IMG/VR virus record: IMGVR_UViG_3300038334_000010
Location: 1-59,341 of that record
DNA: 59,341 nt
Strand: one strand, 5' to 3'
From: a virus
Taxonomy: Duplodnaviria > Caudoviricetes
A program made the translations under genes and the position numbers. Within the stretch, counting starts at the first letter, position 1. Each line of letters starts with the position of its first letter. Positions 2,173 to 45,022 of the stretch are shown here, one piece after another. The notes below the pieces were generated by a model that worked only from the letters and a program-made list of their open reading frames with translations, did not search any database and was not told the origin of the DNA.

Positions 2173-3054
2173 ATGAGTGGGTACACCAAGCTGTTTTCGA
2201 GCATCACGGAATCAACCGTTTGGCAAGCTCCAGACACGACAAGGCTGGTATGGATAACGATGCTGGCGATGGCCGATCAGAACGGCGAGGTATCGGCGTC
2301 AGTGCCAGGGTTGGCAGACAGGGCAAGGGTATCGATAGACGCGTGCGTTGAGGCGCTGGCGCTCTTTGCGGCCCCTGACGAGTGGAGCAGGACGAAGGAT
2401 TACGACGGTAGGCGGATCGTCGAATGTGATGGCGGCTGGTTGTTGCTGAATCACGCGAAGTACCGTGAGGCGAGGAGCAAGGATGCGCGCCGTGAGTATC
2501 AGCGAAACTTGATGAGAGAAAGGCGCAGGAAAGAGAAGGAATGCGCGTTAGCAAATGTTAGCAAAAGTGAGCAAAGTGAGCCGGGGTTAGCCAAAGCAGA
2601 AGCAGAAGCAGAAGCAGTAGATCAAAAGCTATTGGATAAGCTGGCGCTAACCAATGACGGGGAGGAGGACAAAAATGCAGCGGGAAAGACGCTGCGCAAG
2701 CGAAACTCAACCGGTGATGACCCGCTTTGCGACCTCGTGAGAAATATCTACGACGCAACCTTGCCCAAGTGCAGGGCAGCAGGATCACTCACACCAAAGC
2801 GCAAAAAACGCATCCACGAAGCCGACAAGATGGCCAAGGACTTCTGCAAGAGCCACGGTTGGGACTACGTTCCAGCAGAGTTCTGGGAGAACTACTTCGG
2901 CGAGTGTCTTGGCGATCCGTGGCTCAGTGGCGACACTGTGAACCCGAACAATTCAGGGTGGAAGCAGAACATCGACCTGTTGCTGGACGAAAAGCGGTTC
3001 ACCCAGATCATGGACGGGGCAGTCACCAAGATGAGGGGGAAATCTCATGGGTGA
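2173..3054 (+). CDS. Phage replication initiation protein
   Basis: N-terminal YTKLFSSITESTVW...LVWITMLAMADQNG winged-helix type, basic helix, AEAEAEA linker; directly upstream of DnaB. Confidence 0.75.
   Translation: MSGYTKLFSSITESTVWQAPDTTRLVWITMLAMADQNGEVSASVPGLADRARVSIDACVEALALFAAPDEWSRTKDYDGRRIVECDGGWLLLNHAKYREARSKDARREYQRNLMRERRRKEKECALANVSKSEQSEPGLAKAEAEAEAVDQKLLDKLALTNDGEEDKNAAGKTLRKRNSTGDDPLCDLVRNIYDATLPKCRAAGSLTPKRKKRIHEADKMAKDFCKSHGWDYVPAEFWENYFGECLGDPWLSGDTVNPNNSGWKQNIDLLLDEKRFTQIMDGAVTKMRGKSHG
2547..2620 (+). repeat. Putative origin iterons inside the initiator gene
   Basis: GT(T/G)AGC(A/C) at 2547, 2557, 2567, 2576, 2586 followed by GCAGAA repeats. Confidence 0.55.
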
Positions 3055-4441
3055 TATGCCACTCAGGGCGCCTCCAAGCGCCATAGAAGCCGAGCAAGCC
3101 GTTCTTGGGGCATTGATGCTCGACATCGCCAAACTGCCCGAATTGGCCGATTGGCTAAGCCACAGGGACTTCTACCGGCGTGACCACGAGCTGATCTACC
3201 GCGCCATCTGCCATTTGGCATCGAAGTCGCTGCCGACCGACGCGGTAACCATCGCCGACTGGCTGGATGCGAACAAACTTGGCGAGCAGGCGGGAGGAAT
3301 GTCGTACCTGACCGAACTGGCATCGACCACCCCTTCGGCGGCAAACGTGTTGGCTTATGCCGAAATTGTCCACGAGAAGTCCAAGCTACGCCAGGCGATT
3401 GAGGCTGGTTGTGGGCTTGTGGATGCCGCATTCGACCCGCAGGGCCAGTCTGCCGGCGACATCCTCGCCCAAGCGCAATACCGGATCAACGCGCTCGCTC
3501 CGTCAAGGCGCTCTGGGCTTCAGGCCGCAAAGCCGATTCTCGTGGAGTGGATTGCCGACCTTCAGGCGCGCTATGAGGGAAAGAAACTTCCGGGGCTACC
3601 GTATCCGTGGAAGGATCTGAACGATGCTACTGGCGGGCTTCTCACCGAAGAACTGACGATAATCGCAGGTCGGTCGAACATGGGCAAGAGTACGCTGGCA
3701 TTCCAGATCGCCGCGTTCACTGCGCTCAGGGGGAACAGGGTCGCAGTGTTTTCGCTCGAATCCAGCAAAAAGGCCGTGATGCAGCGCATGGTTGCTGCTT
3801 TGGGCGAGATACCGAACCGCTGGCTACGGCAACCTGACGACGAGCACGACTACTGGCCGATGGTGACAAGCGCCATTTCGCAGTTGAAGGATTGTCCGTT
3901 GTGGATTGACGATACGGCTCGCCTTGAACCAATGCAGATTCGTGCCAGAGCCATGCGAGAGCATCTTCGCCAACCGATAAAACTGGTTGTCATTGACCAC
4001 CTTCAGGAGGTCAAACTGACCGGAAAGCGCAACGAATCGAGCGAGATGGGCGATGCCGTGCGAGAGTTCAAGGCACTGCAAAAGGAGCTTGGCTGCCCGA
4101 TTATCGTGCTGTCACAGCTAAATCGTGATGCCGCAAAGGACGGCCAACGGCCAGCCATGACGCACCTTAAATCAAGTGGCGGTATCGAGGAGGTGGCAGA
4201 CGTAGTTATCCTCTTGCACCGCTGGGACTACTACAAGCCGAACGACCGTCCAGGGCTGATTGAAGCCATCATTGGCAAGGGGAGAGACATAAAGACCGGA
4301 GACATAATCCCGCTCAAGAATCGGTTTGACATCATGCGCGCAGACGATTGGGATGGCCCAGTACCATCTGCTGAAACAGCACCAGCTGGTTCCGGGTTTA
4401 GTGCTAGAAAGTGGGGACGGGACTTGCAAGCATCCGATTGA
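3047..4441 (+). CDS. dnaB: Replicative DNA helicase
   Basis: EAEQAVLGALM N-terminus, Walker A AGRSNMGKS, VVIDHLQ, LSQLNR, SGGIEEVAD. Confidence 0.95.
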   Translation: MGDMPLRAPPSAIEAEQAVLGALMLDIAKLPELADWLSHRDFYRRDHELIYRAICHLASKSLPTDAVTIADWLDANKLGEQAGGMSYLTELASTTPSAANVLAYAEIVHEKSKLRQAIEAGCGLVDAAFDPQGQSAGDILAQAQYRINALAPSRRSGLQAAKPILVEWIADLQARYEGKKLPGLPYPWKDLNDATGGLLTEELTIIAGRSNMGKSTLAFQIAAFTALRGNRVAVFSLESSKKAVMQRMVAALGEIPNRWLRQPDDEHDYWPMVTSAISQLKDCPLWIDDTARLEPMQIRARAMREHLRQPIKLVVIDHLQEVKLTGKRNESSEMGDAVREFKALQKELGCPIIVLSQLNRDAAKDGQRPAMTHLKSSGGIEEVADVVILLHRWDYYKPNDRPGLIEAIIGKGRDIKTGDIIPLKNRFDIMRADDWDGPVPSAETAPAGSGFSARKWGRDLQASD

Positions 4442-32404: not shown

Positions 32405-34018
32405 ATGCAAGCGAAGCCACCGATCTTTATAGACGAGCAGGGCAGGGCCACGGTTACTAACCCAGCGCGCACGCAGCTTGTACCAACAAGCTCCGCACAG
32501 CGACTTTCGTCAAGTCGTGGGCTTGTCCCAATTGGTAGCGCAACGCCGGTTGAACAATTCACGAAAGAGCAGATCCGTGCGGCGCGCGCTGCCACGGATG
32601 CGCGCTTGGCCCCGCTTTCCGGCGCATCAACGCAGGGCGCAGCGCCATCAGCATCGGCGAGTCCGGCTTCAGCAACGCCAAACCAGCAGCCGGTCAAGCC
32701 ATCGGTGCTCAATAGGCTTTCCAGCGCAATTAGGGATAATCCGAGGAAAGCTATCGGTGGCACTGTGCTGTCTACTGCCTTGGAAGCCCCGACTGTGCTT
32801 GATGCGTTTCAGCGTGGAGGCGCGGTAGAAGGGCTTAAGCAAGTTGGTCGTTCAGGATTGAAAGTTGCCGGTGGTATTGGGGGCGGTGCATTGGGATTGC
32901 TTGCCCCACCAGGCGCGCAGATTGCTACTATCCCAGCATTGTCTGTGGCTGGCAACGCTGCTGGTAAAGCGGTCGGAAACTTTGTGTTTGGGGAAGGTCT
33001 TGTCGATGGCAGAACGGAATCTGGCCCGTCGAAGTTGGCGCAAGCAGTGCGAACAGCTGCTGCTGCCGACTTTTCTGGCAGAGCCCGCCCAGGAGGTACT
33101 ACGACAAGTATTCTTCCAGAGTTTCTTGGCGGTAATAATCAGCCAAGGGCCATTCCTGCGCAAAGCATTACATCGCCCATTGGTACTACAGGGCCGACAA
33201 GCCGTGGGAGTGCGCGCCGGACAGCAGGTGGGAGCGCGCAGGCTGGGCAATCGCCTTCGGAAGTGCTTAGCACATTCACAGGTTCGGACAGGAGAACACA
33301 GGCCATCACGCGGTCAAGGGCAAACGATCTGGCAGCGCAGTTGCCTACGGTATCAATTACTGCTGGCGGCGATACCGCCGCGCGCCAGCAAAATGGCAGA
33401 GCCGCACAGTTTCAGGCGCGCAGACCATCTGCGTCAGGGCTGAGTTCCGTAAGCCGCCAGATTGACGCGACGATTGCTGGACTTGGCGAGTTGAATATGC
33501 GCTCCAAGCGCGCGCTAGTTGGGCAGCTTTTAGATGCCAAGGCACGGCTTGCGTCAGGGCAGTTCAACACCGAGGCAGGCATTGGAACCAACGATGCATC
33601 CATTGCGCAGCGTCAGGCTGGCGATCTTTTGTCTGCGGATACGTCGTCAACCAATGCTCGGCTAGGCCGTGCTCAAACGGTAGTTGGCGCGGATGGGGCA
33701 TTGCGCACGCTTGATCCGGCAAACCCTGCATCGCTGACGCCAGTTACTGATGCTGCTGGAAATCCGATATTTACTCCGCAACGGAGTTCGGCCGATCCGC
33801 AGGCAAAGTTCCAGAATGATGCTTTGCTGAAGCTGATCCAAGGGCAGGCCAACCAGATTGGCGGAGACGGCATAAATGAGCAGCAGCTTCAGGAACAGCT
33901 TGACGCGATCAAGCGGCTCAGTTCTGGCGGCGGTGCGGGATTGCAGCAAATAGGGACGGACTCAAAAACGGGGAACCCCGTATTCCGTGATGCCAATGGT
34001 AATTTGGTGACTAAGTAA
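32405..34018 (+). CDS. Putative DNA ejection protein
   Basis: AGGAG RBS; Ala/Gly/Gln-rich with Gly-zipper hydrophobic segment. Confidence 0.65.
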   Translation: MQAKPPIFIDEQGRATVTNPARTQLVPTSSAQRLSSSRGLVPIGSATPVEQFTKEQIRAARAATDARLAPLSGASTQGAAPSASASPASATPNQQPVKPSVLNRLSSAIRDNPRKAIGGTVLSTALEAPTVLDAFQRGGAVEGLKQVGRSGLKVAGGIGGGALGLLAPPGAQIATIPALSVAGNAAGKAVGNFVFGEGLVDGRTESGPSKLAQAVRTAAAADFSGRARPGGTTTSILPEFLGGNNQPRAIPAQSITSPIGTTGPTSRGSARRTAGGSAQAGQSPSEVLSTFTGSDRRTQAITRSRANDLAAQLPTVSITAGGDTAARQQNGRAAQFQARRPSASGLSSVSRQIDATIAGLGELNMRSKRALVGQLLDAKARLASGQFNTEAGIGTNDASIAQRQAGDLLSADTSSTNARLGRAQTVVGADGALRTLDPANPASLTPVTDAAGNPIFTPQRSSADPQAKFQNDALLKLIQGQANQIGGDGINEQQLQEQLDAIKRLSSGGGAGLQQIGTDSKTGNPVFRDANGNLVTK

Positions 34019-37000
34019 TGCTCAAACCATTTACGGGGAAGCTTACCCTTAACCCTGATGGCAGGCCGATTCCTGTTGCCGAGCAGTTGGCTGCGCCAGT
34101 GGCTGTGCAACAGCAGCCGGTTGAGCCGCAAGGCCGAACGCTTGGCAGAACACTCGCCGATCTTGGACTGGGCGCTGCGTCTGGTACGGTCGGACTTGTT
34201 GGCGATGTGGCGCAAGCCGCGAATACGGTAAGCGGTGGTGCGATTGACCGGCTGATAGCGCCGGCCGAGCGAGCCGTTACCGGGCGGCCAGCGACAGGCA
34301 TTGCCCAATTGCAGCAATCTGCGCGGCAGTTTGTCAATTCAGGGTTGAGTGCAGATATTACCGCGCGCCAGCAGAACCTTCAGCAGCAGACTGGGTTTGT
34401 TGCACCAGCAGCGACACTGTTATCCGATCCAGGACTAGCTGGGCAATTCTTGGCTGAGCAGGTTCCTATCCTGCTAGCGCTTGGCAAAACGTCGCGTAGC
34501 GCCGCACGTAGCGGGCGTTCTGCCTCGTTGGAGAACACTGCAAAGATCACTGCGCAGCGCCCAGTTCGTGCCGGAGCGGCTGAACGACTGGCAGAACGTG
34601 CTGCTGAAAAGTCATCGCAGCAATCTGTTATTGCCGCGAGTTCTGTGCTTGGCGGCGGGTCAGCGGCCAATCAGGCGAGTCAGGAAGTCGAAGCGCTGCC
34701 GATTGAGACATTGCGTGCTAATCCAGAGTTCGCGGCGCGCGCTGCAATTGTTGGCGAGGACAAGGCGAGAGCCGAATTGGCGCAAGGTGCTGCACTCAGG
34801 GCGCTGGCCATTGCAGCACCATCTTCAGCAGTAGCAAGTAGGATTGCTGCGCCGTTTGAGTCAAAACTGTTCCGTGGGCAGTTGGGTGGCGGCGGGTTGA
34901 AGGAACGGCTGCGGACCATTGGAACCGGCGTGGCGCGAGAGGTGACCGAGGAAACCTTGCAGGAAGGCTCGGAGCAGTTGGCTCAGAACATTGGCGTACA
35001 GTCCGCCGACCCAACGGTTGGCACATTCCGTGGCGTTCCAGAAGCGGCTAGCATCGGCGGTGCGCTTGGCGCGCTATTTGGTGCTGGTGGCGGGGCATTT
35101 GGCGGGGCTGTAAGGTCGGATGCAGTAGCGCCGCAAGACCCGGCGAGTGACCCTGCTGCCCCAGACCCTGCCATTGATCCGGCTGTTCAGGCGCCAGATG
35201 CAGGACTGACTGCCCAGCCGGTAGACATTGCCCAGCAACCTTCCGATAATGCAACACAGCAGGACGACAGCGCGGCGCAGCAGGTTGTGCAGGAACCGGC
35301 CAAAGCACCGCTGGAAGCCGCTGCGGATATTGCTACAGGTCTTGCCGAAGTTGACGCATCGTCAGGCGCTGGCCCGGCTGCAAGGGCGTTTGTTGATGCG
35401 CAAAACAAAGAAGTCGCACGTGGCGGAGATTTGGTCGAGAAGGCCGCTCAGGCGCAGATCAAAGCTGCTAGCGATGAAGCATTGAAAGCCGCCAAAAAGG
35501 CGGATACCCAATCTGCGCAGGTCGCAGCACTTGGTGAAAAAGCAGGCGCCCCTCCCACGCCGGCAAAAGCCACGAGCGCGCCTGCGCAGACCTCTAATCC
35601 GGCGACGGATGCGGCTGTATCGGCGCAGGATCAGTCTGCGCAACAGGCAGCACCAGCGCTTCCTGTTGGGGAAGTTCGCAAAGTAGGCAAGTCCAGCATC
35701 ACATTGACGCCGATTGCGAGTGATCCAATTGTTGCTACCGAGCTTACATCAAAGGGATCGTTGGCAATTCTGCGAGCAGCCACTTCACCGACTGGCGCAG
35801 AGGTAAATGCAATCGCGCAAAACAACGTGAACGCGCCGACAGGTGCAATAGGTGGCAGCGGCGTCAGGATCAATTTGCGAGGCCAATCGGTTTCAGCGAC
35901 GCAGATTCCAACAACAACGGATGTCCGGCAGTTCGGCGTGAACTTCGTCGGGCCGCAGTCCATTGAGTCCGTGGTAGTGGCCAGTGGCGTTCGCTTGGTG
36001 CCAGCAGCGCGCAAGATTCTGACGGACTCGTTCACCGCGACGGTTAACCAGAACGGATCGACTGTCTACACGCCAAAAGCTGCGCCACCGGCTAGTGCGC
36101 CTGCTTCGGTGGGCGCTGAAGTTGCGCAGGCTAATACGGCGCCACAGCCGGTAGTTCAGGCGTCGCCATCGCAGCCATCTGTAGTTCAAGCAGCGCCAGC
36201 AGCGGCGCAGCCAGTGAAGAATACGCCAGCGGCGCGTAAGGCAGCGAGGATAGCAGCTGAGCAGAATGTGACGATTGCATCAAACAACGATCAAACAAAT
36301 GTCGCCAGTGCAAACAATGTGTTGTCCGGCAGGTCGGCGAGTTCAGCCAATCCCAATCAAGAAACGGTCGCTATCCAGAATACGGCTAGCAAGTCGGCTG
36401 TCCGTCGCGTTGCGGCATCACAGGGGAAAACGCAGGCTTCCGTTGCGCCGAATACTACTGCGACGGCAAATACTGCTGTGCAGCAGAAAGCCGCAGCGGC
36501 GGCAACTTCCGCAGATACAGCAACTGTGCCTACGGAAAAACGGAAAGCACGTACTGCGGCTACGCCAGTTGTCAAGGATTCCTTGACAACTGCGAAAAAG
36601 GCAAAGGCGGCTCCGAAGGCCAAAGCTAAGAAGAAAACCATTGCCAAAACTCCGGGAGCCAAGACCGCCACAGTAGAGGCGACCGCCAAAATACCGGCTA
36701 CCGCCAAGGCCGCCAAGTTGCCGAAGGCCAAGACCGTAGCCGAAAAGGTTGCAGATAGCGTCACACCGCCACAAGCGCCTACGCGGACTCAGGGAGCGTC
36801 AATCGCTGATCCAGGCGTTAAGGTGGCGCCTTCCAACGCGGCCGCCTTGAACGAGCATATCGCGCGGATTGTTTCGCAGTGGCGTGGTGACGTGCCCAGC
36901 GTGAAGGTTATTCAGTCTGTAACGGATTTGCCGCTCAGAGCGCAGAGGGGAAACGAGTTCAACAGGGCCGAAGGCTGGTATGACGGAGCTACGATCTATC

Positions 37001-40000
37001 TGGTTGCCGACAACATTCCTACCGCGCTGCGTGCCGAGCAGGTTCTGGCCCACGAAGCCTTTGGCCACTTTGGCGTAGATGGCGTGTTCGGCCGAGCCGA
37101 ATGGGACGGGATCATTGCTCAGGTTGGCAAGATTCGTTCTGGCGAAGCCGTGGCTTCAGGACCGCTACAATCCGCCTTGCAAGCGACCCGCAGACGCTAC
37201 CCGAACGCGAGTCGTGAAACCTTCGCCCGAGAGTTCATCGCTGTCATGGCCGAACGTAACCTGCGAGCCAGCCCATTTGGACGTGTGCTTGCGGCCGTTC
37301 GTGCATTCCTGAGATTCCTTGGCTTCAAGCCCGATTCGTGGGCTGAAGCAGATTTGCGATCTGTCGTTTCCGAAGGAATGCGTAGGGTCCAGAATGCCCA
37401 GAAGGTCCGTGTTGCCACAGTGAACGCAGCAACCGAAGGCGCGTTTTCCGTGATGGACCCGAACGTGGCGTTCAACACGCTGGCTGATGCGCTCGCCCCA
37501 GAACAAGGAATTGTCCGGCGTGTGCTGAACAAGGCATCCGATCTGGCGGCTGTTGGGCTCAAGGCGCTCACGCTTCGCCAGTTGGTTGAGATTGCGTCAG
37601 ACCGCCTGTTGCCAAACGCAAAGCGCTACCAGCGCGCCGTGGATGACATGAAGGTGAGGCGAATCTCATTGCAGAACAAACCTGCCGAATTGGTCAAACG
37701 GTTCGCCGACATGCAATCAGACGCCTATCGGAAGATGCGACAGCAGGGCAAGCAGTTGTCCGACGCTGATGTTATGGCGAACGTAGCCCATGACGCAACG
37801 ATTGCTGGCGCCGATCCAGCTGAAGCGTTTGTAGCTGGCGTGGTGTCGTTGGAGCACGACGGGGCAAAGATCGATGTGACGCCGGAGGCTGTTGGCAAGG
37901 CTGTGTCAGACCTAAAGGCGTTGCTGGAAGACAAGGCTATAGAGGCAGAACGCATCCCGATCATCAAAAGCGACATCGCCAGACTCAAGGCAGCACTTGC
38001 GGCTGAGCCAAAGCGAATTGAAGACCATGCCGCGCTGGTTCCACGGTTCAATGCGATGCCCAAAGCATGGCAGCAGCTTTACAGGGACGTTCGCGATCAG
38101 TATGCGGCGAGAGCCGACGAAACAATGCAGTCCATACTGGAGCGTATTGACCGAATGGACCTGAGCGATAGGGTCAAAAAAGATACCGCCATCCGAGCGC
38201 GGGCACGATTCGAGTCTGCCCGCATTACCGCGCCATACTTCCCGCTGGCTCGGTTCGGCGAGTATTGGGCCAGTCTGACTTCGCCAGAAGGCGAGGCTCA
38301 TTTCATCATGGCCGAGACGAAGACGGAGCGAGACGCTGAGCTTTCCAAGCTGGCCGCCAAGGGGTTCACATTCAACAAGGCGGGTGTCCATTTGGACTCG
38401 ACATTCGCGGCTGACCAGACGAGCGGCACGTTCGTTGCTGACGTAGTGGCGATGCTGGACAAGAACGGGGTGGACTCCAAGGTTCAGGACGAGGTGTACC
38501 AGATGTTCCTGCGCCACTTGCCAGACCTTTCGGCAAGAAAGTCGTTCATCCATCGCAAGAAGATCGCCGGCTACAGTTCCGACATGCTCAGGGCGTTCGC
38601 TGGGCAGATGAACCATTCGTCGTTTCAGTTGGCGCGTCTTGAGTTCAAGGATCGGCTTGATAGTGCGCTGACTGCGGTAAAGGCAGATGCAAAGGCCGCT
38701 AACGCGCTAGGTGCTGATGATGGCGCGCTGGCAGATAGACTGGTGAACGAGCTGAACCGACGCAATGACTGGGTTCTACACCCGACGCACAACAAGTATG
38801 TGCAGGCCCTGCAAAGCGCAAACTTCGTGTTCTATCTTGGACTTGCTCCTGCGTCAGCCATCGTCAATCTGACGCAGAATGCTTTGGTTACATATCCAGC
38901 TTTGGTTGCTCGGTATGGAGTCGTCCAGGCAACACGGCATATGATGACGGCGTTTTGGTCGTCTGTATCCACAGGCGGAAACATTGACACAACGCAGTTG
39001 AACGCTGACGAACAAGCGGCTATGCAGCAATTAGTGCAGCTTGGCGCACGCGATCAAACACTTGGGCATGACCTTGCCGGAATCGGCGACAATGATACAC
39101 GAGACTTTAACCCGCTCGGAAGCAAGGTGATGCACCTTCTTTCGTTCCTGTTCCACAGGGCTGAGGTAATCAACCGCGAATCGACGGGACTGGCTACATA
39201 CCGGTTAGCGCGTGAGGCTGGCAAGGGACACGATGCAGCAGTGGTAGAGGCAGCAGACACGATTTGGAGTACCCATTTCGACTTCTCAAACGAGAATCGT
39301 GCCGCATTCATGCAGTCCGACGCCGGCAAAGTCATCTTTGCGTTCAAGCAGTACAGCCAAGGCATGACGTACTTCCTTGGGCGGGCAGCATTTCAGTCGA
39401 TAAATGGCGCTACGCCTGAAATAAAGCGTGAGGCGCAACGCAGGATAACTGGCACGCTGTTCATGACCGGCGTGTTCTCAGGCGTGCTTGGGATGCCGAC
39501 TATGAGCGTCATTCTCGGCACCATGAACGCCATGGGGGCCGCATTTGGTGACGATGATGATCCGTTCGATGCAGAAACCGAGGTGAGGAACTTCTTTGCG
39601 GACATGCTTGGATTCGGCGGCAAGCTGATCGGCGGGGCCGAAGGAGAGAAGATTGGTCGGTCGGCCGAGAGCGTGCTGTCTCGCGGCCCCATTGAGGCGC
39701 TCACTGGCATAGGCATTGCCAACCGAACCAGCCTTTCCGAGCTATGGTTCCGCGACCCCAACCGCGAACTGGAAGGACGTGCGCTTGGCGACCACATCAT
39801 GGAGCAGGTTGCTGGGCCTATCGGTGCGATTGCCTTAAACCTGTTTCAGTCCGCAAGCACGATCCACGAAGGACTAGATACTGGCAACAACGGAATGATG
39901 CTCCGTGGGCTTGAGTCAGCAATGCCGACGGCCGTCAAGTCGGCCATGAAGGCTCTCCGGTTTGGAGTAGATGGGGCCAATACGCTGCGTGGTGATCCGC

Positions 40001-40368
40001 TGATCGACGACGTGAACTGGCGTGAGGTCCTTTTCCAGTTCACTGGATTCTCACCAGCCCGCATCAACGCCATCTACGACGTTAACAACGCCAAGAAGAA
40101 CGTTGAGGAATCGCTAATCAAGCGCAAGTCAACGCTGATAGACGCCTACGCACTGACACTCAAGTTCAAGGACAGGGATGGCCAGCGCAATGTTGTCGAG
40201 AAGATCAAGAAGTTCAACGCCACCAATCCGACCATCGCAATCACTATGTCTACGATCCGCCGTGCTATGACTTCGAGGCAGAACTTCTCCGAGCGGGCTT
40301 CGGGAGGTGTGGTTGTAAACCCTCGTCTTCAAGGGCGTATTGACGATAAAGTGCGTTTTGGGCAGTGA
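34018..40368 (+). CDS. Giant ejection/polyvalent protein with PLxRFG domain
   Basis: EETLQEGSEQ ejection-type motif, LAHEAFGH zincin-like motif, YFPLARFGEY, FAFKQY. Confidence 0.85.
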   Translation: MLKPFTGKLTLNPDGRPIPVAEQLAAPVAVQQQPVEPQGRTLGRTLADLGLGAASGTVGLVGDVAQAANTVSGGAIDRLIAPAERAVTGRPATGIAQLQQSARQFVNSGLSADITARQQNLQQQTGFVAPAATLLSDPGLAGQFLAEQVPILLALGKTSRSAARSGRSASLENTAKITAQRPVRAGAAERLAERAAEKSSQQSVIAASSVLGGGSAANQASQEVEALPIETLRANPEFAARAAIVGEDKARAELAQGAALRALAIAAPSSAVASRIAAPFESKLFRGQLGGGGLKERLRTIGTGVAREVTEETLQEGSEQLAQNIGVQSADPTVGTFRGVPEAASIGGALGALFGAGGGAFGGAVRSDAVAPQDPASDPAAPDPAIDPAVQAPDAGLTAQPVDIAQQPSDNATQQDDSAAQQVVQEPAKAPLEAAADIATGLAEVDASSGAGPAARAFVDAQNKEVARGGDLVEKAAQAQIKAASDEALKAAKKADTQSAQVAALGEKAGAPPTPAKATSAPAQTSNPATDAAVSAQDQSAQQAAPALPVGEVRKVGKSSITLTPIASDPIVATELTSKGSLAILRAATSPTGAEVNAIAQNNVNAPTGAIGGSGVRINLRGQSVSATQIPTTTDVRQFGVNFVGPQSIESVVVASGVRLVPAARKILTDSFTATVNQNGSTVYTPKAAPPASAPASVGAEVAQANTAPQPVVQASPSQPSVVQAAPAAAQPVKNTPAARKAARIAAEQNVTIASNNDQTNVASANNVLSGRSASSANPNQETVAIQNTASKSAVRRVAASQGKTQASVAPNTTATANTAVQQKAAAAATSADTATVPTEKRKARTAATPVVKDSLTTAKKAKAAPKAKAKKKTIAKTPGAKTATVEATAKIPATAKAAKLPKAKTVAEKVADSVTPPQAPTRTQGASIADPGVKVAPSNAAALNEHIARIVSQWRGDVPSVKVIQSVTDLPLRAQRGNEFNRAEGWYDGATIYLVADNIPTALRAEQVLAHEAFGHFGVDGVFGRAEWDGIIAQVGKIRSGEAVASGPLQSALQATRRRYPNASRETFAREFIAVMAERNLRASPFGRVLAAVRAFLRFLGFKPDSWAEADLRSVVSEGMRRVQNAQKVRVATVNAATEGAFSVMDPNVAFNTLADALAPEQGIVRRVLNKASDLAAVGLKALTLRQLVEIASDRLLPNAKRYQRAVDDMKVRRISLQNKPAELVKRFADMQSDAYRKMRQQGKQLSDADVMANVAHDATIAGADPAEAFVAGVVSLEHDGAKIDVTPEAVGKAVSDLKALLEDKAIEAERIPIIKSDIARLKAALAAEPKRIEDHAALVPRFNAMPKAWQQLYRDVRDQYAARADETMQSILERIDRMDLSDRVKKDTAIRARARFESARITAPYFPLARFGEYWASLTSPEGEAHFIMAETKTERDAELSKLAAKGFTFNKAGVHLDSTFAADQTSGTFVADVVAMLDKNGVDSKVQDEVYQMFLRHLPDLSARKSFIHRKKIAGYSSDMLRAFAGQMNHSSFQLARLEFKDRLDSALTAVKADAKAANALGADDGALADRLVNELNRRNDWVLHPTHNKYVQALQSANFVFYLGLAPASAIVNLTQNALVTYPALVARYGVVQATRHMMTAFWSSVSTGGNIDTTQLNADEQAAMQQLVQLGARDQTLGHDLAGIGDNDTRDFNPLGSKVMHLLSFLFHRAEVINRESTGLATYRLAREAGKGHDAAVVEAADTIWSTHFDFSNENRAAFMQSDAGKVIFAFKQYSQGMTYFLGRAAFQSINGATPEIKREAQRRITGTLFMTGVFSGVLGMPTMSVILGTMNAMGAAFGDDDDPFDAETEVRNFFADMLGFGGKLIGGAEGEKIGRSAESVLSRGPIEALTGIGIANRTSLSELWFRDPNRELEGRALGDHIMEQVAGPIGAIALNLFQSASTIHEGLDTGNNGMMLRGLESAMPTAVKSAMKALRFGVDGANTLRGDPLIDDVNWREVLFQFTGFSPARINAIYDVNNAKKNVEESLIKRKSTLIDAYALTLKFKDRDGQRNVVEKIKKFNATNPTIAITMSTIRRAMTSRQNFSERASGGVVVNPRLQGRIDDKVRFGQ

Positions 40369-40963: not shown

Positions 40964-43165
40964 GTGGTGAACGAAATGAAGCGATGCAACTACCAGGGAT
41001 GCGGTAGCTACGCATTCAACTTGTCGCGTGATGGGATTGACCAGCGCGATTTGTGCGATGTCCATTACTGGCAGAGCAAGGCCAAAACGGCGAGGCGCGA
41101 TGCGCTGGAAGATGCCGCCAACAAGTTCGACGGAACTACTACATACAACCCGCTGGCGGCGGACGGATACTCCAACGCCTCCGATATTGCTAGCGAGCTT
41201 CGGTACATGGCTACCGAAGAACTGTTGTGGGAATAAGACATGAAAGACACATTCCCTGAAACATTGATGATACGAGATACCGAAACCTACGATGGCAATG
41301 GCATAGGAGGCTTTGGGCAAAGAATATTTACCACTGCCGGATTCGGATATGAAAAGGTTAAGTATGTGCGCGCAGATATTTTGAACGTGCCATACGCTAA
41401 TCCATGTCCGCATTGCAATAAACAGCTAAAACTGCCGTATAACACATTGCAGAATACTCAAAGTTATCTAAAGCCCTTGCGCTCAATCACACGGTGCTGC
41501 CAGCAGTTGGTAACAGTACATCCGTGCGTTCACTTGGTTGTAAGTGTATATAAGGGCGGCGAGGTGGAAGATGATTGGGGTCGCCAAGTGACTAAGTCAA
41601 TAGCAAATGGTGAATTATGAGTGACTTTGACCACTGGTTTGCTGAGTACAACAATGAAAACCACGGGCGTAACGATGCTGCCGAAGCCGCATGGGATCAC
41701 CAGCAGCGCACGATTGATGCATTGCGGGCATTCGCACAAGAGGTCATGGAGTTCTCTCCCCTCGGGTACACCGATGGTCTAGATTTGCAAGCAATCGCCT
41801 GCAAGCACGGATTGATGGCTACCGATAGACGTGTGATGCCGTGCGCTGAAGGCTCTGCGTGTACATGCAGAGCAATTTACTCGAAGCGTGCGTTAGGCCG
41901 TGAAATAAATTGCACCCACAAAACACCACTGTTGATAGGAGGCTGACATGCAACTGACCCAGCGTGAGATTCGCCACCAACGACCGTTGCCGATAGGCAA
42001 GTGCGGACACTCGCCGAGGCACTACCTGGACTCGCGTGGCGCTGGATCGCACCTGCTGGAGTGCGCCATGTGTGGCGTGTCTAGCGGCAAGATGACGACA
42101 TTCAACGAGGCGCTTGAGCGCTGGACTGGCGAAGCGGTGCGGGCTCTCAGATATGTGGGGAGCGCGAAATGAGCGTGGACAGAAAAAACTCCAACCTGGT
42201 TGAGATTGCATCGCAGATGCTTCACGGCAGAGGAATGCCAGACTTTGATGATCTTCCGCTACCGTCCAGCGCGTCAAGAAGACTGCGAAGAGAGCTGAGT
42301 AAGCAAGAGCGAAGAGCGCACGAGCAGTGCCGGTTGTGGGCGATTGAGTTGTACGAAATCGCAAAATCGATGAAAGGTATTGACTGGAAAGGAAATACGC
42401 GATGAAGTTTGACTATAGATTCACTGGCAAGAGTATCGGCCTTCCGTTCGACGTTGGCGTAATTGACTATTTATTGTCTGACTCAATCGCTGAACAGTAC
42501 GTGGACTTTGAAATCATCGGCCCCGATGGGATCAGCATGCCTTCACACCTTGTCGAGGACTATTTCGACGCGTCCGAGAAAAGCAAGATGCGGGATACAA
42601 TACTCAAGGCGATAGAAGAGGAGCGTGCTCTAAGTTTCCGCAAAGGATACGATTGACGAATGTCCCCCAGCTTGCGGGGTGCGCGCTCTAGTCCAGCGCG
42701 CGAATCTCCACGCCGCGCCGGCGACGTGTAAGCACCGGCACTAATTACCACCACCACAAAGGAACAGTCGTGGCTGAGATGAGAGATATACCGGACATCG
42801 TTAACACAGAGTTCAGCCAGTTTTTCGAGTTTTCGACGGAGCAACGCACTGCTGTGACGGTAGTATCAGCAAAACTGTTCGCTGCCCGTGTGGCCACTCT
42901 GGCAGTTGAATCAGCGATCGCTGCGCAGTCGATCCCATGCGTTGATAAGCAATGCGTAGGCGGATGCAATGCTGCCAAGTCTGATAATGAGATTCGTCGA
43001 ATGGAGTCGCTGCTGAGCAGGGCATTGCCATACGTCGAAGCATCTGCTGAAGCCAGCCATTTTACCGATGGCTTTAACAGGAAGCCATCGAATAGCATCG
43101 ACCGGCTATCCGACGAAATCAAAACAGCGATTACAGAAGCGGTGAACGCAATTGAAAAGGAATGA
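40964..43165 (+). other. Run of small hypothetical early genes (40964..41236, 41240..41620, 41617..41946, 41948..42172, 42169..42405, 42402..42656, 42770..43165)
   Basis: Tightly coupled ORFs with ATGA overlaps or RBS; several have CxxC pairs. Confidence 0.6.
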
Positions 43166-43322
43166 AATGAATATTTTTGGTGCAAGAGTTTGGTTTTATC
43201 GAAGTTATTGCGTGTCACCATACTTTCATAGCCGGTATCGTGGCGGAAAACTGCACCACATCACGCTCGGGCCTATAACAATGGTAATTGAGCGCAGACG
43301 CAATCCAGAAAACAAGTAAAGC

Positions 43323-43423
43323 ACTCGCATAGCTCAATGGTAGAGCAGGAGGCTTATACCCTCCCCCGGAAGGCGCCGCCAGATTAGCGGACGATCATGG
43401 TTCGATTCCATGTGCGAGTACCA
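43323..43423 (+). tRNA. tRNA with TAT anticodon (Ile-UAU), 31-nt variable region, encoded CCA
   Basis: ACTCGCA/TGCGAGT acceptor, GCTC/GAGC D stem, GGAGG-CTTATAC-CCTCC, CATGG-TTCGATT-CCATG, ACCA end. Confidence 0.88.
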
Positions 43424-43562
43424 ACCTGCGCGGTGTTTGCTGGCCTGCATCGCGCCTGTAGTTCGACCAGATGCACGCATGCTGCCAGAGGGTATGCGCT
43501 AAGACAATCCTATGCGGATTCCGCGAAGGATAGCTCTGGCCAAACAAATTAGAGGCGTAGCA

Positions 43563-43886
43563 ATGACACATCGTAAACCACGCATCAAGTCCGAAACACT
43601 GCGCCTTGCGCCTGCCGACATGCCTTGTATGTTCGCAATCCCTGACGTGTGCCGCAACGATGGCAGCGTGCTGTGCCATATCCGCGTACCTGGCGAGGGA
43701 GGGGCTGGAATGAAGCCTGACGACCTGATTGCGGCCGCTGGCTGCCGCTGGTGCCACGACGTGTTTGACGGTCGCGCCAAGGGATTACAGCGCGGCTCGG
43801 AGGATTGGCTGTACTACGCATTACGCGCACTATCGCGCAACCTGCGGGCATTGCAGGACGCCGGCAAACTTGGGATACGACAATGA
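43563..43886 (+). CDS. DUF1364/YbcO-like Zn-binding nuclease
   Basis: CMFAIPDVC..VLCHIR..GAGMKPDDLIAAAGCRWCHDVFDGR. Confidence 0.8.
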   Translation: MTHRKPRIKSETLRLAPADMPCMFAIPDVCRNDGSVLCHIRVPGEGGAGMKPDDLIAAAGCRWCHDVFDGRAKGLQRGSEDWLYYALRALSRNLRALQDAGKLGIRQ

Positions 43887-45022
43887 GTGACGAACGCGAA
43901 TATGTTGTGGAGGAAGTGGCAATGATTGTCATGCCTGCTGGCTCTGCAATCTCTTGCCAAGAAGCTACCGCAGTGCGAATCAGGGACGAGGGGACAGGCC
44001 CGTTCGTCGTAGTTTCGCAGTCCGCGCGTGGCGATGGCTCCGGAATCGCTGTGACCGCCGAGGATTGGCCGGCCATCAAGCAGGCCGTTGAGCAGTTGAT
44101 GAAAGGCTGTCAGCGCATCGAACGAATGCAGGGTGGTCGGGAATGATGTACCTCAACGAGGTCGCGGCAAAAGATGCAGAGCGGGCCGAAATGCGCAAGG
44201 CGATGGCGCGATTCATGGCGAGTGGAGGGCTGATTGAGCGCCCGAAGCCGATAGACGTGCTCGACCCTGGCAGGTACGGCATGACTATGCGTCAGGTGCA
44301 GGGCAAGGAAAAAGAGCAGCGCGCAAAGCGCAAAGTGAGGCGGAAATGACTACGGAAACTGACTTGGTACCGATCAGCGGCGTAGATAAAGCCATCAAAG
44401 TTGTTGGCGAAGTGATGGAGCTACCTGCCGACCAGCATATAGACTATCTTGAAATGCTCGCGCTTGCTGCGACAAAGTACATGCGACTTTTGGGCGGGGA
44501 AGAATACACGCGTGGGTGGCTCACCGCAGCATTGGCCGACCTGGACAATCCGTTGCAATTCGTGCTTAAAAAACATAATTGATGGCTGAAATGAAAATAC
44601 TTAACCCTATGGCATGCGACTGTGAGGACGTGTCAGCAGGTTTGTGGCGCGACAGTTAGAGGATCGAAATGACAGGACGCACGACGAAAACAGCGCCGAA
44701 GAGAATATGGCTACAGGTCAACCCTGATGCGTGGGCCGATGACGATGACAATGTGGAGGATCAGGACGAACCGTTCCCGGCTGAAGATGTAACATGGTGC
44801 CCGCACAGCATAGGCGGGCTTGAGGTCGAATACGTCCGTGCCGATCTTGTGCAGCAGATTGAAGCCACGTTGCGCGACGCACTGACAGAAATACGCGATA
44901 GGATCGTCGATCATCCGGCGTATGACGAACTGACGCTGGAAGAAGAAATCGATACTGGCGGTGACACGGCTGAACTGTCTTATCTCGCCCGAGTCGCCAA
45001 TGAAGCCCTTAACAGAGAATAG
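43883..45022 (+). other. Small hypothetical genes (43883..44146, 44143..44349, 44346..44582, 44669..45022)
   Basis: ATGA-coupled ORFs. Confidence 0.6.

Follow-up and report, generated by a model that had tools for sequence, protein, structure and literature searches.

A candidate AUA-reading phage tRNA with a G-A-U-tipped, two-hairpin variable region

Textbooks restrict long variable arms to the tRNAs for leucine, serine, tyrosine and selenocysteine, and in their account tRNA-Ile(UAU) is rare among bacteria, being found in a few lineages that lack TilS. The viral genome in IMG/VR record IMGVR_UViG_3300038334_000010 (Duplodnaviria; Caudoviricetes), analysed here over its full 59,341 nucleotides (the window), holds a tRNA gene that combines a UAU anticodon with a 31-nt variable region. 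This locus raises the question of whether such a gene is a working tRNA, which amino acid it would bring to AUA codons and what its extra structure is for. As judged from its sequence, the gene is a genuine tRNA, probably functional and AUA-reading, and it falls into the rarer two-hairpin subfamily of a widespread family of UAU tRNAs whose variable arm presents the triplet G-A-U. Our best explanation as a whole, in which an AUA-reading tRNA carries the GAU hairpin as a surrogate determinant for isoleucyl-tRNA synthetase (IleRS), stands about even in our judgement.

The tRNA gene and its fold

The gene occupies positions 43323-43423 of the plus strand, with 98 nt up to the discriminator, A73 (43420), followed by an encoded CCA (43421-43423). 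All four canonical stems pair perfectly: the acceptor stem (43323-43329 with 43413-43419, 7/7 pairs), the D stem (43332-43335 with 43343-43346, 4/4 pairs, closing a 7-nt loop), the stem of the anticodon arm (arm 43348-43364; stem 43348-43352 with 43360-43364, 5/5 pairs) and that of the T arm (arm 43396-43412; stem 43396-43400 with 43408-43412, 5/5 pairs, loop TTCGATT). The 7-nt anticodon loop (43353-43359) reads C-T-TAT-A-C, which places the UAU anticodon at 43355-43357 between U33 and A37. Bases that make tertiary contacts are kept, namely U8, A14, the A15-U48 pair, G18G19 in the D loop and TTCGA in the T loop. The Rfam tRNA model (RF00005) matched 43323-43420 over model positions 1-71 of 71 with 60.2 bits (gathering score 29; E 1.5e-10) and placed a 28-nt insertion in the variable region; no other Rfam family matched in the window. 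The gene thus has the RF00005 cloverleaf, with a 7/5 acceptor/T branch, a 4-bp D stem and a 5-bp anticodon stem. A preliminary description of this DNA had named the UAU anticodon, the four perfect stems, the CT-TAT-AC loop, the CCA and the 31-nt variable region, and every one of these details agrees with the sequence.

The variable region (43365-43395, 31 nt) forms two hairpins in the minimum free energy fold, which is otherwise a cloverleaf. Hairpin 1 (43365-43373) consists of one free C followed by CC/GG around a GGAA tetraloop. Hairpin 2 (43374-43393) has a 4-bp core, CCGC/GCGG, continued by 2 bp across a single bulged A to give a 6-bp stem, and its 7-nt loop (43380-43386) is CAGAUUA, with G-A-U at 43382-43384. 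The final two bases (43394-43395) include U43395, which is position 48 and the partner of A15 (43337). The fold energy of -35.7 kcal/mol (z -2.2) was equalled or bettered by 7 of 200 shuffles, and by 2 of 200 when the CCA was left off (z -2.4). One groundwater study supplied four DNA runs whose contigs repeat the 31-nt region with no differences, two of these runs being possibly the window's own source; the region is not an assembly slip.

ARAGORN, which the preliminary description had named as a check on the gene, reported no tRNA over the window. Codon usage was counted in the phage: AUA accounts for 162 of the phage's 877 isoleucine codons (18.5%), or 10.2 per 1000, and is present in 39 of the 47 plus-strand open reading frames (ORFs) of at least 100 residues. 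By the two finders, Rfam and ARAGORN, the gene at 43323-43423 is the sole tRNA gene of the 59.3-kb genome. Taken with the relatives described below, we hold it to be, with high confidence, a real tRNA of the GAU-tipped variable-arm UAU family.

A family of UAU tRNAs with a GAU-tipped variable arm

Three features define the family: the anticodon UAU, the discriminator A73 and, in the variable region, a hairpin with a stem of about 4 bp and a 7-nt loop in which positions 3-5 are G-A-U; the window tRNA has all of these in its CCGC/GCGG stem, its CAGAUUA loop and its A73. The family sets are drawn from scans that list part of the matches, and the counts given are samples. Scanning viral contigs for a D-arm, a UAU loop, a long gap of any content and a T-arm returned 21 loci, of which 20 carry CAGATTA or CAGATAA in a small variable-region hairpin; ARAGORN calls tRNA-Ile(tat), 90-96 nt long, in 19 of the 21. 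One locus type matches a tRNA-Ile annotated in a cultured Acinetobacter phage at 100% identity and tRNA genes in 43 Vibrio phage records at 79-82%, so that such genes already stand in public annotation as plain 'tRNA-Ile'. E. coli genomes gave no megablast match to the L002-type tRNA (loci collected in the scans are numbered with L). Scans for the anticodon loop, CAGATWA and a T-arm found at least 119 viral and at least 120 genomic stretches, and the genomic matches listed include Acidobacteriaceae, Ruegeria, Sulfitobacter, Stenotrophomonas and Pseudoxanthomonas.

A strict cloverleaf test was passed by 183 of the 259 matches listed, yielding 164 distinct sequences. Among these listed matches, A73 is found in 162 of the 164 and an encoded CCA in 125; the variable region measures 20-31 nt with a mode of 24, the 31 nt of the window being the single longest; and the tail after the GAU hairpin is 5 or 6 nt in 156. 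Position 15 and the last variable base are A-U in 73 and G-C in 12 of the 88 canonical-type members listed, 85 in total. When 40 representatives were aligned, 96.6% of cells were standard-paired, the covariation score was reached by none of 500 shuffles, and all four core pairs of the variable-arm stem changed on both sides. On these sequence comparisons, the family is widespread in phages and bacteria and not a one-off. The UAU tRNA, which had at first been taken as rare and isolated, belongs to a conserved family, and the suggestion that the insert might be removed from the transcript finds no support, the insert being a conserved, covarying structure outside the anticodon loop.

The family also has odd members. 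Three loci on viral contigs (L280, L281, L285) are family tRNAs with C in place of the near-universal U33 of the UAU loop. Others (L023, L026, L141, L147 and similar) set the GAU hairpin and the UAU anticodon on bodies with non-canonical 5' halves of 26-29 nt and allo-like D-arms, and one such short-5'-half type is common to many Acidobacteriaceae genomes.

The arm is coupled to UAU and its loop holds G-A-U

Since the earlier sets had the loop motif forced, a scan was run without any constraint on the arm. It gave 95 distinct long-arm tRNA(UAU) sequences, 67 with CAGATWA and 28 with variant loops that include UAGAUAG, UAGAUGA, UUGAUAG, UGGAUUG and CAGAUGG. With an unbiased hairpin finder, the best hairpin had GAT in its exact centre in 67 of 70 distinct variable regions. 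What stays constant is therefore a G-A-U that fills positions 3-5 of a 7-nt loop, the place that an anticodon takes in its own loop. Loop positions 1 (C) and 7 (A) are nearly fixed, and positions 2 and 6 vary. A scan that used only the variable loop with its closing pair and the T-arm recovered 125 matches, 120 of which are UAU tRNAs, 116 with the usual anticodon loop and 4 unusual at position 32 or 33. The remaining five either hold the 9-mer within an ordinary anticodon arm or are not tRNAs, and no tRNA of another anticodon bearing this arm was found among the 125.

G-A-U is the usual isoleucine anticodon, that of the major tRNA-Ile. Of 79 tRNA-Ile(GAU) genes found in these loci, 65 have CUGAUAA or UUGAUAA as their anticodon loop, and three two-hairpin members (L389, L399 and L405) have a hairpin loop that is exactly CTGATAA. 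The hairpin loop keeps the equivalents of C32, G34, A35, U36 and A38 of the tRNA-Ile(GAU) loop and mostly departs from it at the equivalents of U33 and purine 37, two positions needed for ribosomal decoding. The alternative that the loop mimics a codon (AUU or AUA) was rejected: the unbiased variants include GAUG, in which the triplet after G is AUG. One further locus from the scans, L267 on a viral contig, is a tRNA-Gly(UCC)-like sequence with an apparent 8-nt anticodon loop and could be frameshift-suppressor-like.

A two-hairpin subfamily

A metagenome scan for variable regions of at least 26 nt, with content left free, returned 80 stretches. Together with the window these gave 59 distinct pattern matches, 22 of which parse as tRNAs. 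The GAU hairpin is present in 17 of the 22 (it is absent from L394, L442, L384, L437 and L400), and in 15 of the 17, the window and 14 further tRNAs passing the cloverleaf test, an extra hairpin precedes it. Another locus, L434, has the two-hairpin layout but an imperfect acceptor stem, and fails that test. The layout begins with 0-1 free nt. A hairpin of 2-7 bp follows, whose loop measures 3-5 nt and is in many cases GNRA or UUCG-like, and a linker of 2 nt (3 nt in one case) then leads to the GAU hairpin. The window follows this layout, with a first hairpin of 2 bp only, the smallest version, the stems of its relatives being 3-7 bp. The variable region had been described as possibly two-hairpin, and the relatives with the same layout support this.

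Of 14 sequences folded (the window and 13 relatives), 11 gave a cloverleaf with both hairpins in the expected register; L396 formed the first hairpin and the second in a shifted register, and L401 and L429 folded otherwise. In the window and 7 of the 13 folded relatives, pairing of the linker with the tail extends the GAU stem across a one-base bulge. The 5- or 6-nt tail behind the GAU hairpin may be an ordinary 5-nt variable loop, although the two-hairpin subfamily pairs part of this tail with the linker. The Rfam tRNA model recognised the loci of 13 of the 14 relatives at 55.8-66.2 bits. ARAGORN missed 13 of the 14, miscalled the fourteenth as tRNA-Arg(cct) and called none tRNA-Ile. As it misses the window as well, genes of this kind will be omitted from ARAGORN-based annotation.

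Differing stem lengths put a MAFFT alignment of these genes out of structural register, and hairpin 1 was assessed from the stems of each sequence and from shuffles. Eight members share 86% identity outside the first hairpin, where they are hypervariable. All eight nevertheless pair it fully, and in six of them its stem length was matched by at most 1% of shuffles. The first hairpin behaves as a small expansion segment would, under selection for pairing rather than for sequence.

These relatives bear directly on the possibility that the window gene is decaying, its 9-nt extra segment being a recent insertion that spoiled a family tRNA. The 31-nt variable region is the longest among the 164 distinct sequences listed from the viral and genome scans, ARAGORN rejects the gene and its first hairpin has just 2 bp, all of which would fit such a history. 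Set against this are the perfect stems, the intact tertiary-pair bases and the CCA; the insert lies where 14 cloverleaf-passing tRNAs carry a hairpin, and it shares with them the 2-nt linker and the bulge in the second stem; and the gene is identical in four runs and is the only tRNA of a phage with AUA in 39 of 47 ORFs. In particular, the position of the insert, its CG linker, the bulged A and the tail closely match L426 and L440. We regard decay as very improbable.

Other loci returned by the scans deserve mention. L384 and L437, from metagenomes, are UAU tRNA-like genes in which the 33-nt variable region is a direct repeat. ORFs for RES-domain, HEPN/RES and non-specific endonuclease proteins, at 2644-3852 and 6149-7102 of L406 and at 5315-6640 of L389, flank two-hairpin tRNAs, and these neighbours on large metagenome contigs suggest that the two-hairpin copies lie in variable, island-like regions. 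In a group of tRNA-like genes from metagenome (L385, L386, L387, L390, L408, L415, L423, L447) and viral loci (L017, L315, L342, L351), the loop starts CTTATAG, 33-41 extra bases come after it, and there is no GAU hairpin; these genes probably form a separate kind of tRNA that bears an intron, and a giant-virus bin is the source of one of them.

Probable decoding of AUA and proposed charging with isoleucine

With U33 and A37 in its loop, the UAU arm is the one fit for decoding, and AUA is the codon it is expected to read. As regards charging, the relative kcat/Km of E. coli IleRS is about 360-fold lower with a UAU anticodon than with LAU (L, lysidine), an effect for which Trp905 is responsible, and this residue is reported to be conserved in TilS-bearing species (PMC3575796). 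TilS scored above its curated cut-off in all five bacterial carriers tested, and the IleRS of all five has the Trp in a C-x-R-C-W motif, identified by alignment to the E. coli enzyme in four and by motif in one. Loss of TilS in carriers was thus rejected: the family is an addition to the lysidine system, not a substitute for it, and it lives where IleRS should handle UAU poorly. TilS-independent decoding of AUA, which had been put forward from the sequence, is the natural function of such a tRNA, a UAU anticodon needing no lysidine.

Isoleucine identity in E. coli is assigned to A73 and to the anticodon, in which position 34 is G or lysidine and A35 and U36 follow, with minor determinants at C4-G69, the 12-23 pair, C29-G41, G16, D20, D21 and t6A37, the last being a strong determinant for bacterial IleRS (PMC9976931). 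The window tRNA has A73, A35 and U36, with U at position 34, and it carries G-A-U on the extra hairpin; of the minor set, C4-G69 and U12-A23 are present and A37 follows U36.

We propose that the gene encodes a working phage elongator tRNA that would read the isoleucine codon AUA with a UAU anticodon that TilS cannot modify, and that it would thereby supply a codon that is frequent in the phage and probably poorly read by the host; this codon-supply role is plausible. The GAU hairpin would act as a surrogate anticodon determinant that lets a Trp-type IleRS charge an otherwise poor UAU tRNA, with the true UAU loop left to decode on the ribosome, and hairpin 1 (CC-GGAA-GG) may be a structural strut or expansion segment that positions the GAU hairpin. 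Along these lines, we infer that the gene is expressed, that its product is charged with isoleucine and that IleRS contacts the hairpin. Insertion of isoleucine at AUA seems to us fairly likely. A role of the GAU hairpin as an IleRS determinant is proposed more tentatively; it is the simplest account because the loop presents the best-read triplet, is unfit for decoding, occurs on UAU tRNAs only and is found on several unrelated bodies. More speculative still is a 'two-headed' tRNA, in which isoleucine identity has moved to a decoding-dead copy of the GAU stem-loop, so that IleRS would read the GAU hairpin and the ribosome UAU; in its bold variant the two arms would exchange places on the D stem before IleRS binds. 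The 5- or 6-nt tail (156 of the 164 members listed) and the covariation of the last variable base with position 15 (85 of 88) would agree with such an exchange, although the two-hairpin subfamily pairs part of the tail with the linker.

Several observations weigh against this proposal. Window pair 29-41 is A-U, and positions 16, 20 and 21 are U, U and A, so that the window tRNA lacks G16 and D21. Most members have U at position 6 of the hairpin loop, in place of an A of the t6A37 type, and the mimic of the anticodon loop is to that extent imperfect. A variable arm normally projects from the tRNA core far from the site where IleRS holds the anticodon. When the body was typed without the arm, the top 40 class-I neighbours included 13 Asn, 7 Ile(GAU) and 5 Thr tRNAs. 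The codon-supply argument leans on distant phage relatives only (portal identities of 46% and 35%). Hairpin 1 of the window, with its 2 bp, is not above chance when taken alone, 87.5% of shuffles of its segment matching it, and for this reason its reality rests on the relatives with the same layout. Finally, no RNA run is among the sequencing runs listed for this DNA.

If isoleucine charging were ordinary, the GAU hairpin could be read by a factor other than IleRS, such as an enzyme that modifies or spares U34 and so prevents misreading of AUG, a processing enzyme or the ribosome. Since the hairpin is kept across unrelated tRNA bodies and phyla, that partner should be universal. Misreading of AUG is a second problem that a dedicated element could solve: on the ribosomes of E. 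coli, tRNA-Ile(UAU) decodes not only AUA but also AUG (PMC3575796). With such a reader, however, the charging problem stays unsolved, and the match of the hairpin to the isoleucine anticodon loop at C1, G3, A4, U5 and A7 would be a coincidence. Moreover, we know of no factor that recognises a G-A-U loop. This reading is unlikely.

The main rival is charging by leucyl-tRNA synthetase (LeuRS), with leucine inserted at AUA as a conservative, tolerated mistranslation and the arm a relic or a general class-II feature. Leucine identity in E. coli is described as A73, A15-U48, G18G19 and A20a, with neither the anticodon nor the long arm needed (PMC9976931), and a nematode tRNA-Ile(UAU) with a variable arm was charged only with leucine in vitro (PMC3333845). 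The window has A73, A15-U48 and G18G19, and A15-U48 is present in 73 of the 88 canonical members listed. To this extent the possibility of a differently charged tRNA, raised in the preliminary description, fits. What it leaves unexplained is the constant G-A-U, seen in 67 of 70 unbiased regions, and the link to UAU (120/125). E. coli LeuRS does not read the sequence of the arm. In addition, the 4-bp stem of the D-arm and its 7-nt loop, which has no position 20a, are those of a class-I tRNA, and 12 of the 88 members listed have G15-C48. We consider LeuRS charging unlikely.

A non-translational RNA, acting as a decoy for a host tRNA-targeting nuclease or as a regulator that mimics tRNA-Ile, could in principle use its second GAU loop to sequester a factor whose target is the anticodon loop of tRNA-Ile(GAU), but this is most improbable, as is the earlier thought of a decoy or nuclease-resistant replacement: no nuclease or defence link was found, the conserved acceptor and T arms, A73 (162/164) and CCA (125/164 of the distinct sequences listed) and a decoding-competent UAU loop are the needs of a translating tRNA, and the family is also present in bacterial chromosomes.

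Comparison with known tRNAs

One close counterpart is the class-I tRNA-Ile(UAU), for example tRNA-Ile2 of Mycoplasma mobile (PMC3575796), a type called 'Ile3(UAU)' in the tRNAscan-SE 2.0 paper (PMC8450103). It shares UAU, A37 and A73 with the window tRNA, and it reads AUA without lysidine. Its variable loop, however, is a short one of 4-5 nt, whereas that of the window has 31 nt and two hairpins, and the bacteria that use it have no TilS and an altered or eukaryote-like IleRS, whereas the bacterial carriers of the family keep TilS and a Trp-type IleRS. The window tRNA is in this respect distinct from the class-I tRNA-Ile(UAU) of Mycoplasma, Bifidobacterium and Neorickettsia.

Allo-tRNAs share the long variable arm and UAU, which is a predominant allo-tRNA anticodon (Mukai et al., NAR 2017, PMC5389517), and the GAU loop is found as well in those members of the family that have allo-like D-arms. 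Allo-tRNAs are described there as having an 8/4 or 9/3 branch, a long D stem with a tetraloop, mostly G73 or U73, and Ser or Ala as acceptors, and the main text of that paper mentions no G-A-U loop. With its 7/5 branch, 4-bp D stem, 7-nt D loop and A73, the window tRNA is not an allo-tRNA.

A long arm, UAU and A73 also occur together in the nematode nev-tRNA-Ile(UAU) (PMC3333845). That tRNA is eukaryotic, derived from tRNA-Leu, charged with leucine and equipped with a tRNA-Leu-like arm, whereas the window has a class-I type body and an arm with an isoleucine triplet. With class-II tRNAs (Leu, Ser, Tyr and Sec) the window tRNA has in common an extra paired arm between the anticodon and T arms, which the ribosome tolerates. 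They differ in that class-II tRNAs have one arm and the window has two hairpins, the second with an invariant loop triplet tied to one anticodon. A tRNA-Ser would combine the long arm with G73, whereas the discriminator is A in the window and in 162 of the 164 family members listed.

No description of a bacterial or phage tRNA-Ile with a variable arm was found in the literature, including the pertinent portions of two reviews (PMC7609411, PMC9976931), the tRNAscan-SE 2.0 paper (PMC8450103) and a 2026 paper on IleRS (PMC13752280), and two of these sources, spanning 2021-2026 (PMC8450103 and PMC13752280), still treat tRNA-Ile(UAU) as rare where they discuss it. Both the single-hairpin GAU family and its two-hairpin form are apparently undescribed in print.

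In light of these comparisons, a UAU tRNA with a conserved isoleucine-triplet arm is common in phages and is found in bacterial chromosomes that keep TilS. This makes an old question directly testable, namely how a UAU tRNA is charged and how it avoids misreading AUG in ordinary bacteria. A portable, lysidine-independent decoder of AUA would serve codon-supply engineering, and it would help to explain the adaptation of phages to the codon usage of their hosts. If our proposal is true, phages and mobile elements would have AUA decoding that is portable to any host of the TilS type, the two-headed tRNA would be the first example in nature of a surrogate arm that provides an anticodon determinant, and members with two variable-region hairpins would be six-helix tRNAs.

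The phage genome and the setting of the gene

Direct terminal repeats bound the window, which at 59,341 bp represents a complete viral genome; its G+C content is 55%. It has a gene set of tailed-phage type, with a portal protein, a large terminase, an ExoVIII-like exonuclease, RecT and an HNH endonuclease. Its closest cultured relatives are distant: its portal protein shares 46% identity with that of an Acidovorax phage and 35% with those of Pseudomonas phages. No cultured phage matched positions 42800-44000 by blastn, and a scan of viral contigs for relatives with the ExoVIII-like protein gave 36 pattern matches, none of which was confirmed. A scan of 42600-44200 found nothing promoter-like; its single terminator-like site lies on the minus strand and does no better than shuffles. 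Near the tRNA gene, sub-threshold Rfam matches were confined to the tRNA itself and a chance match on the opposite strand.

The idea of a shared cassette of the tRNA and the HNH endonuclease gene was dropped, as tblastn with the HNH protein and three neighbouring ORFs against the loci collected to that point matched its own locus only. The HNH endonuclease ORF (43512-43886, plus strand; phrog_131, E 1e-22) starts 88 nt past the tRNA, and the block of small genes that contains the tRNA lies downstream of a single ORF of 2116 residues (34018-40368, plus strand).

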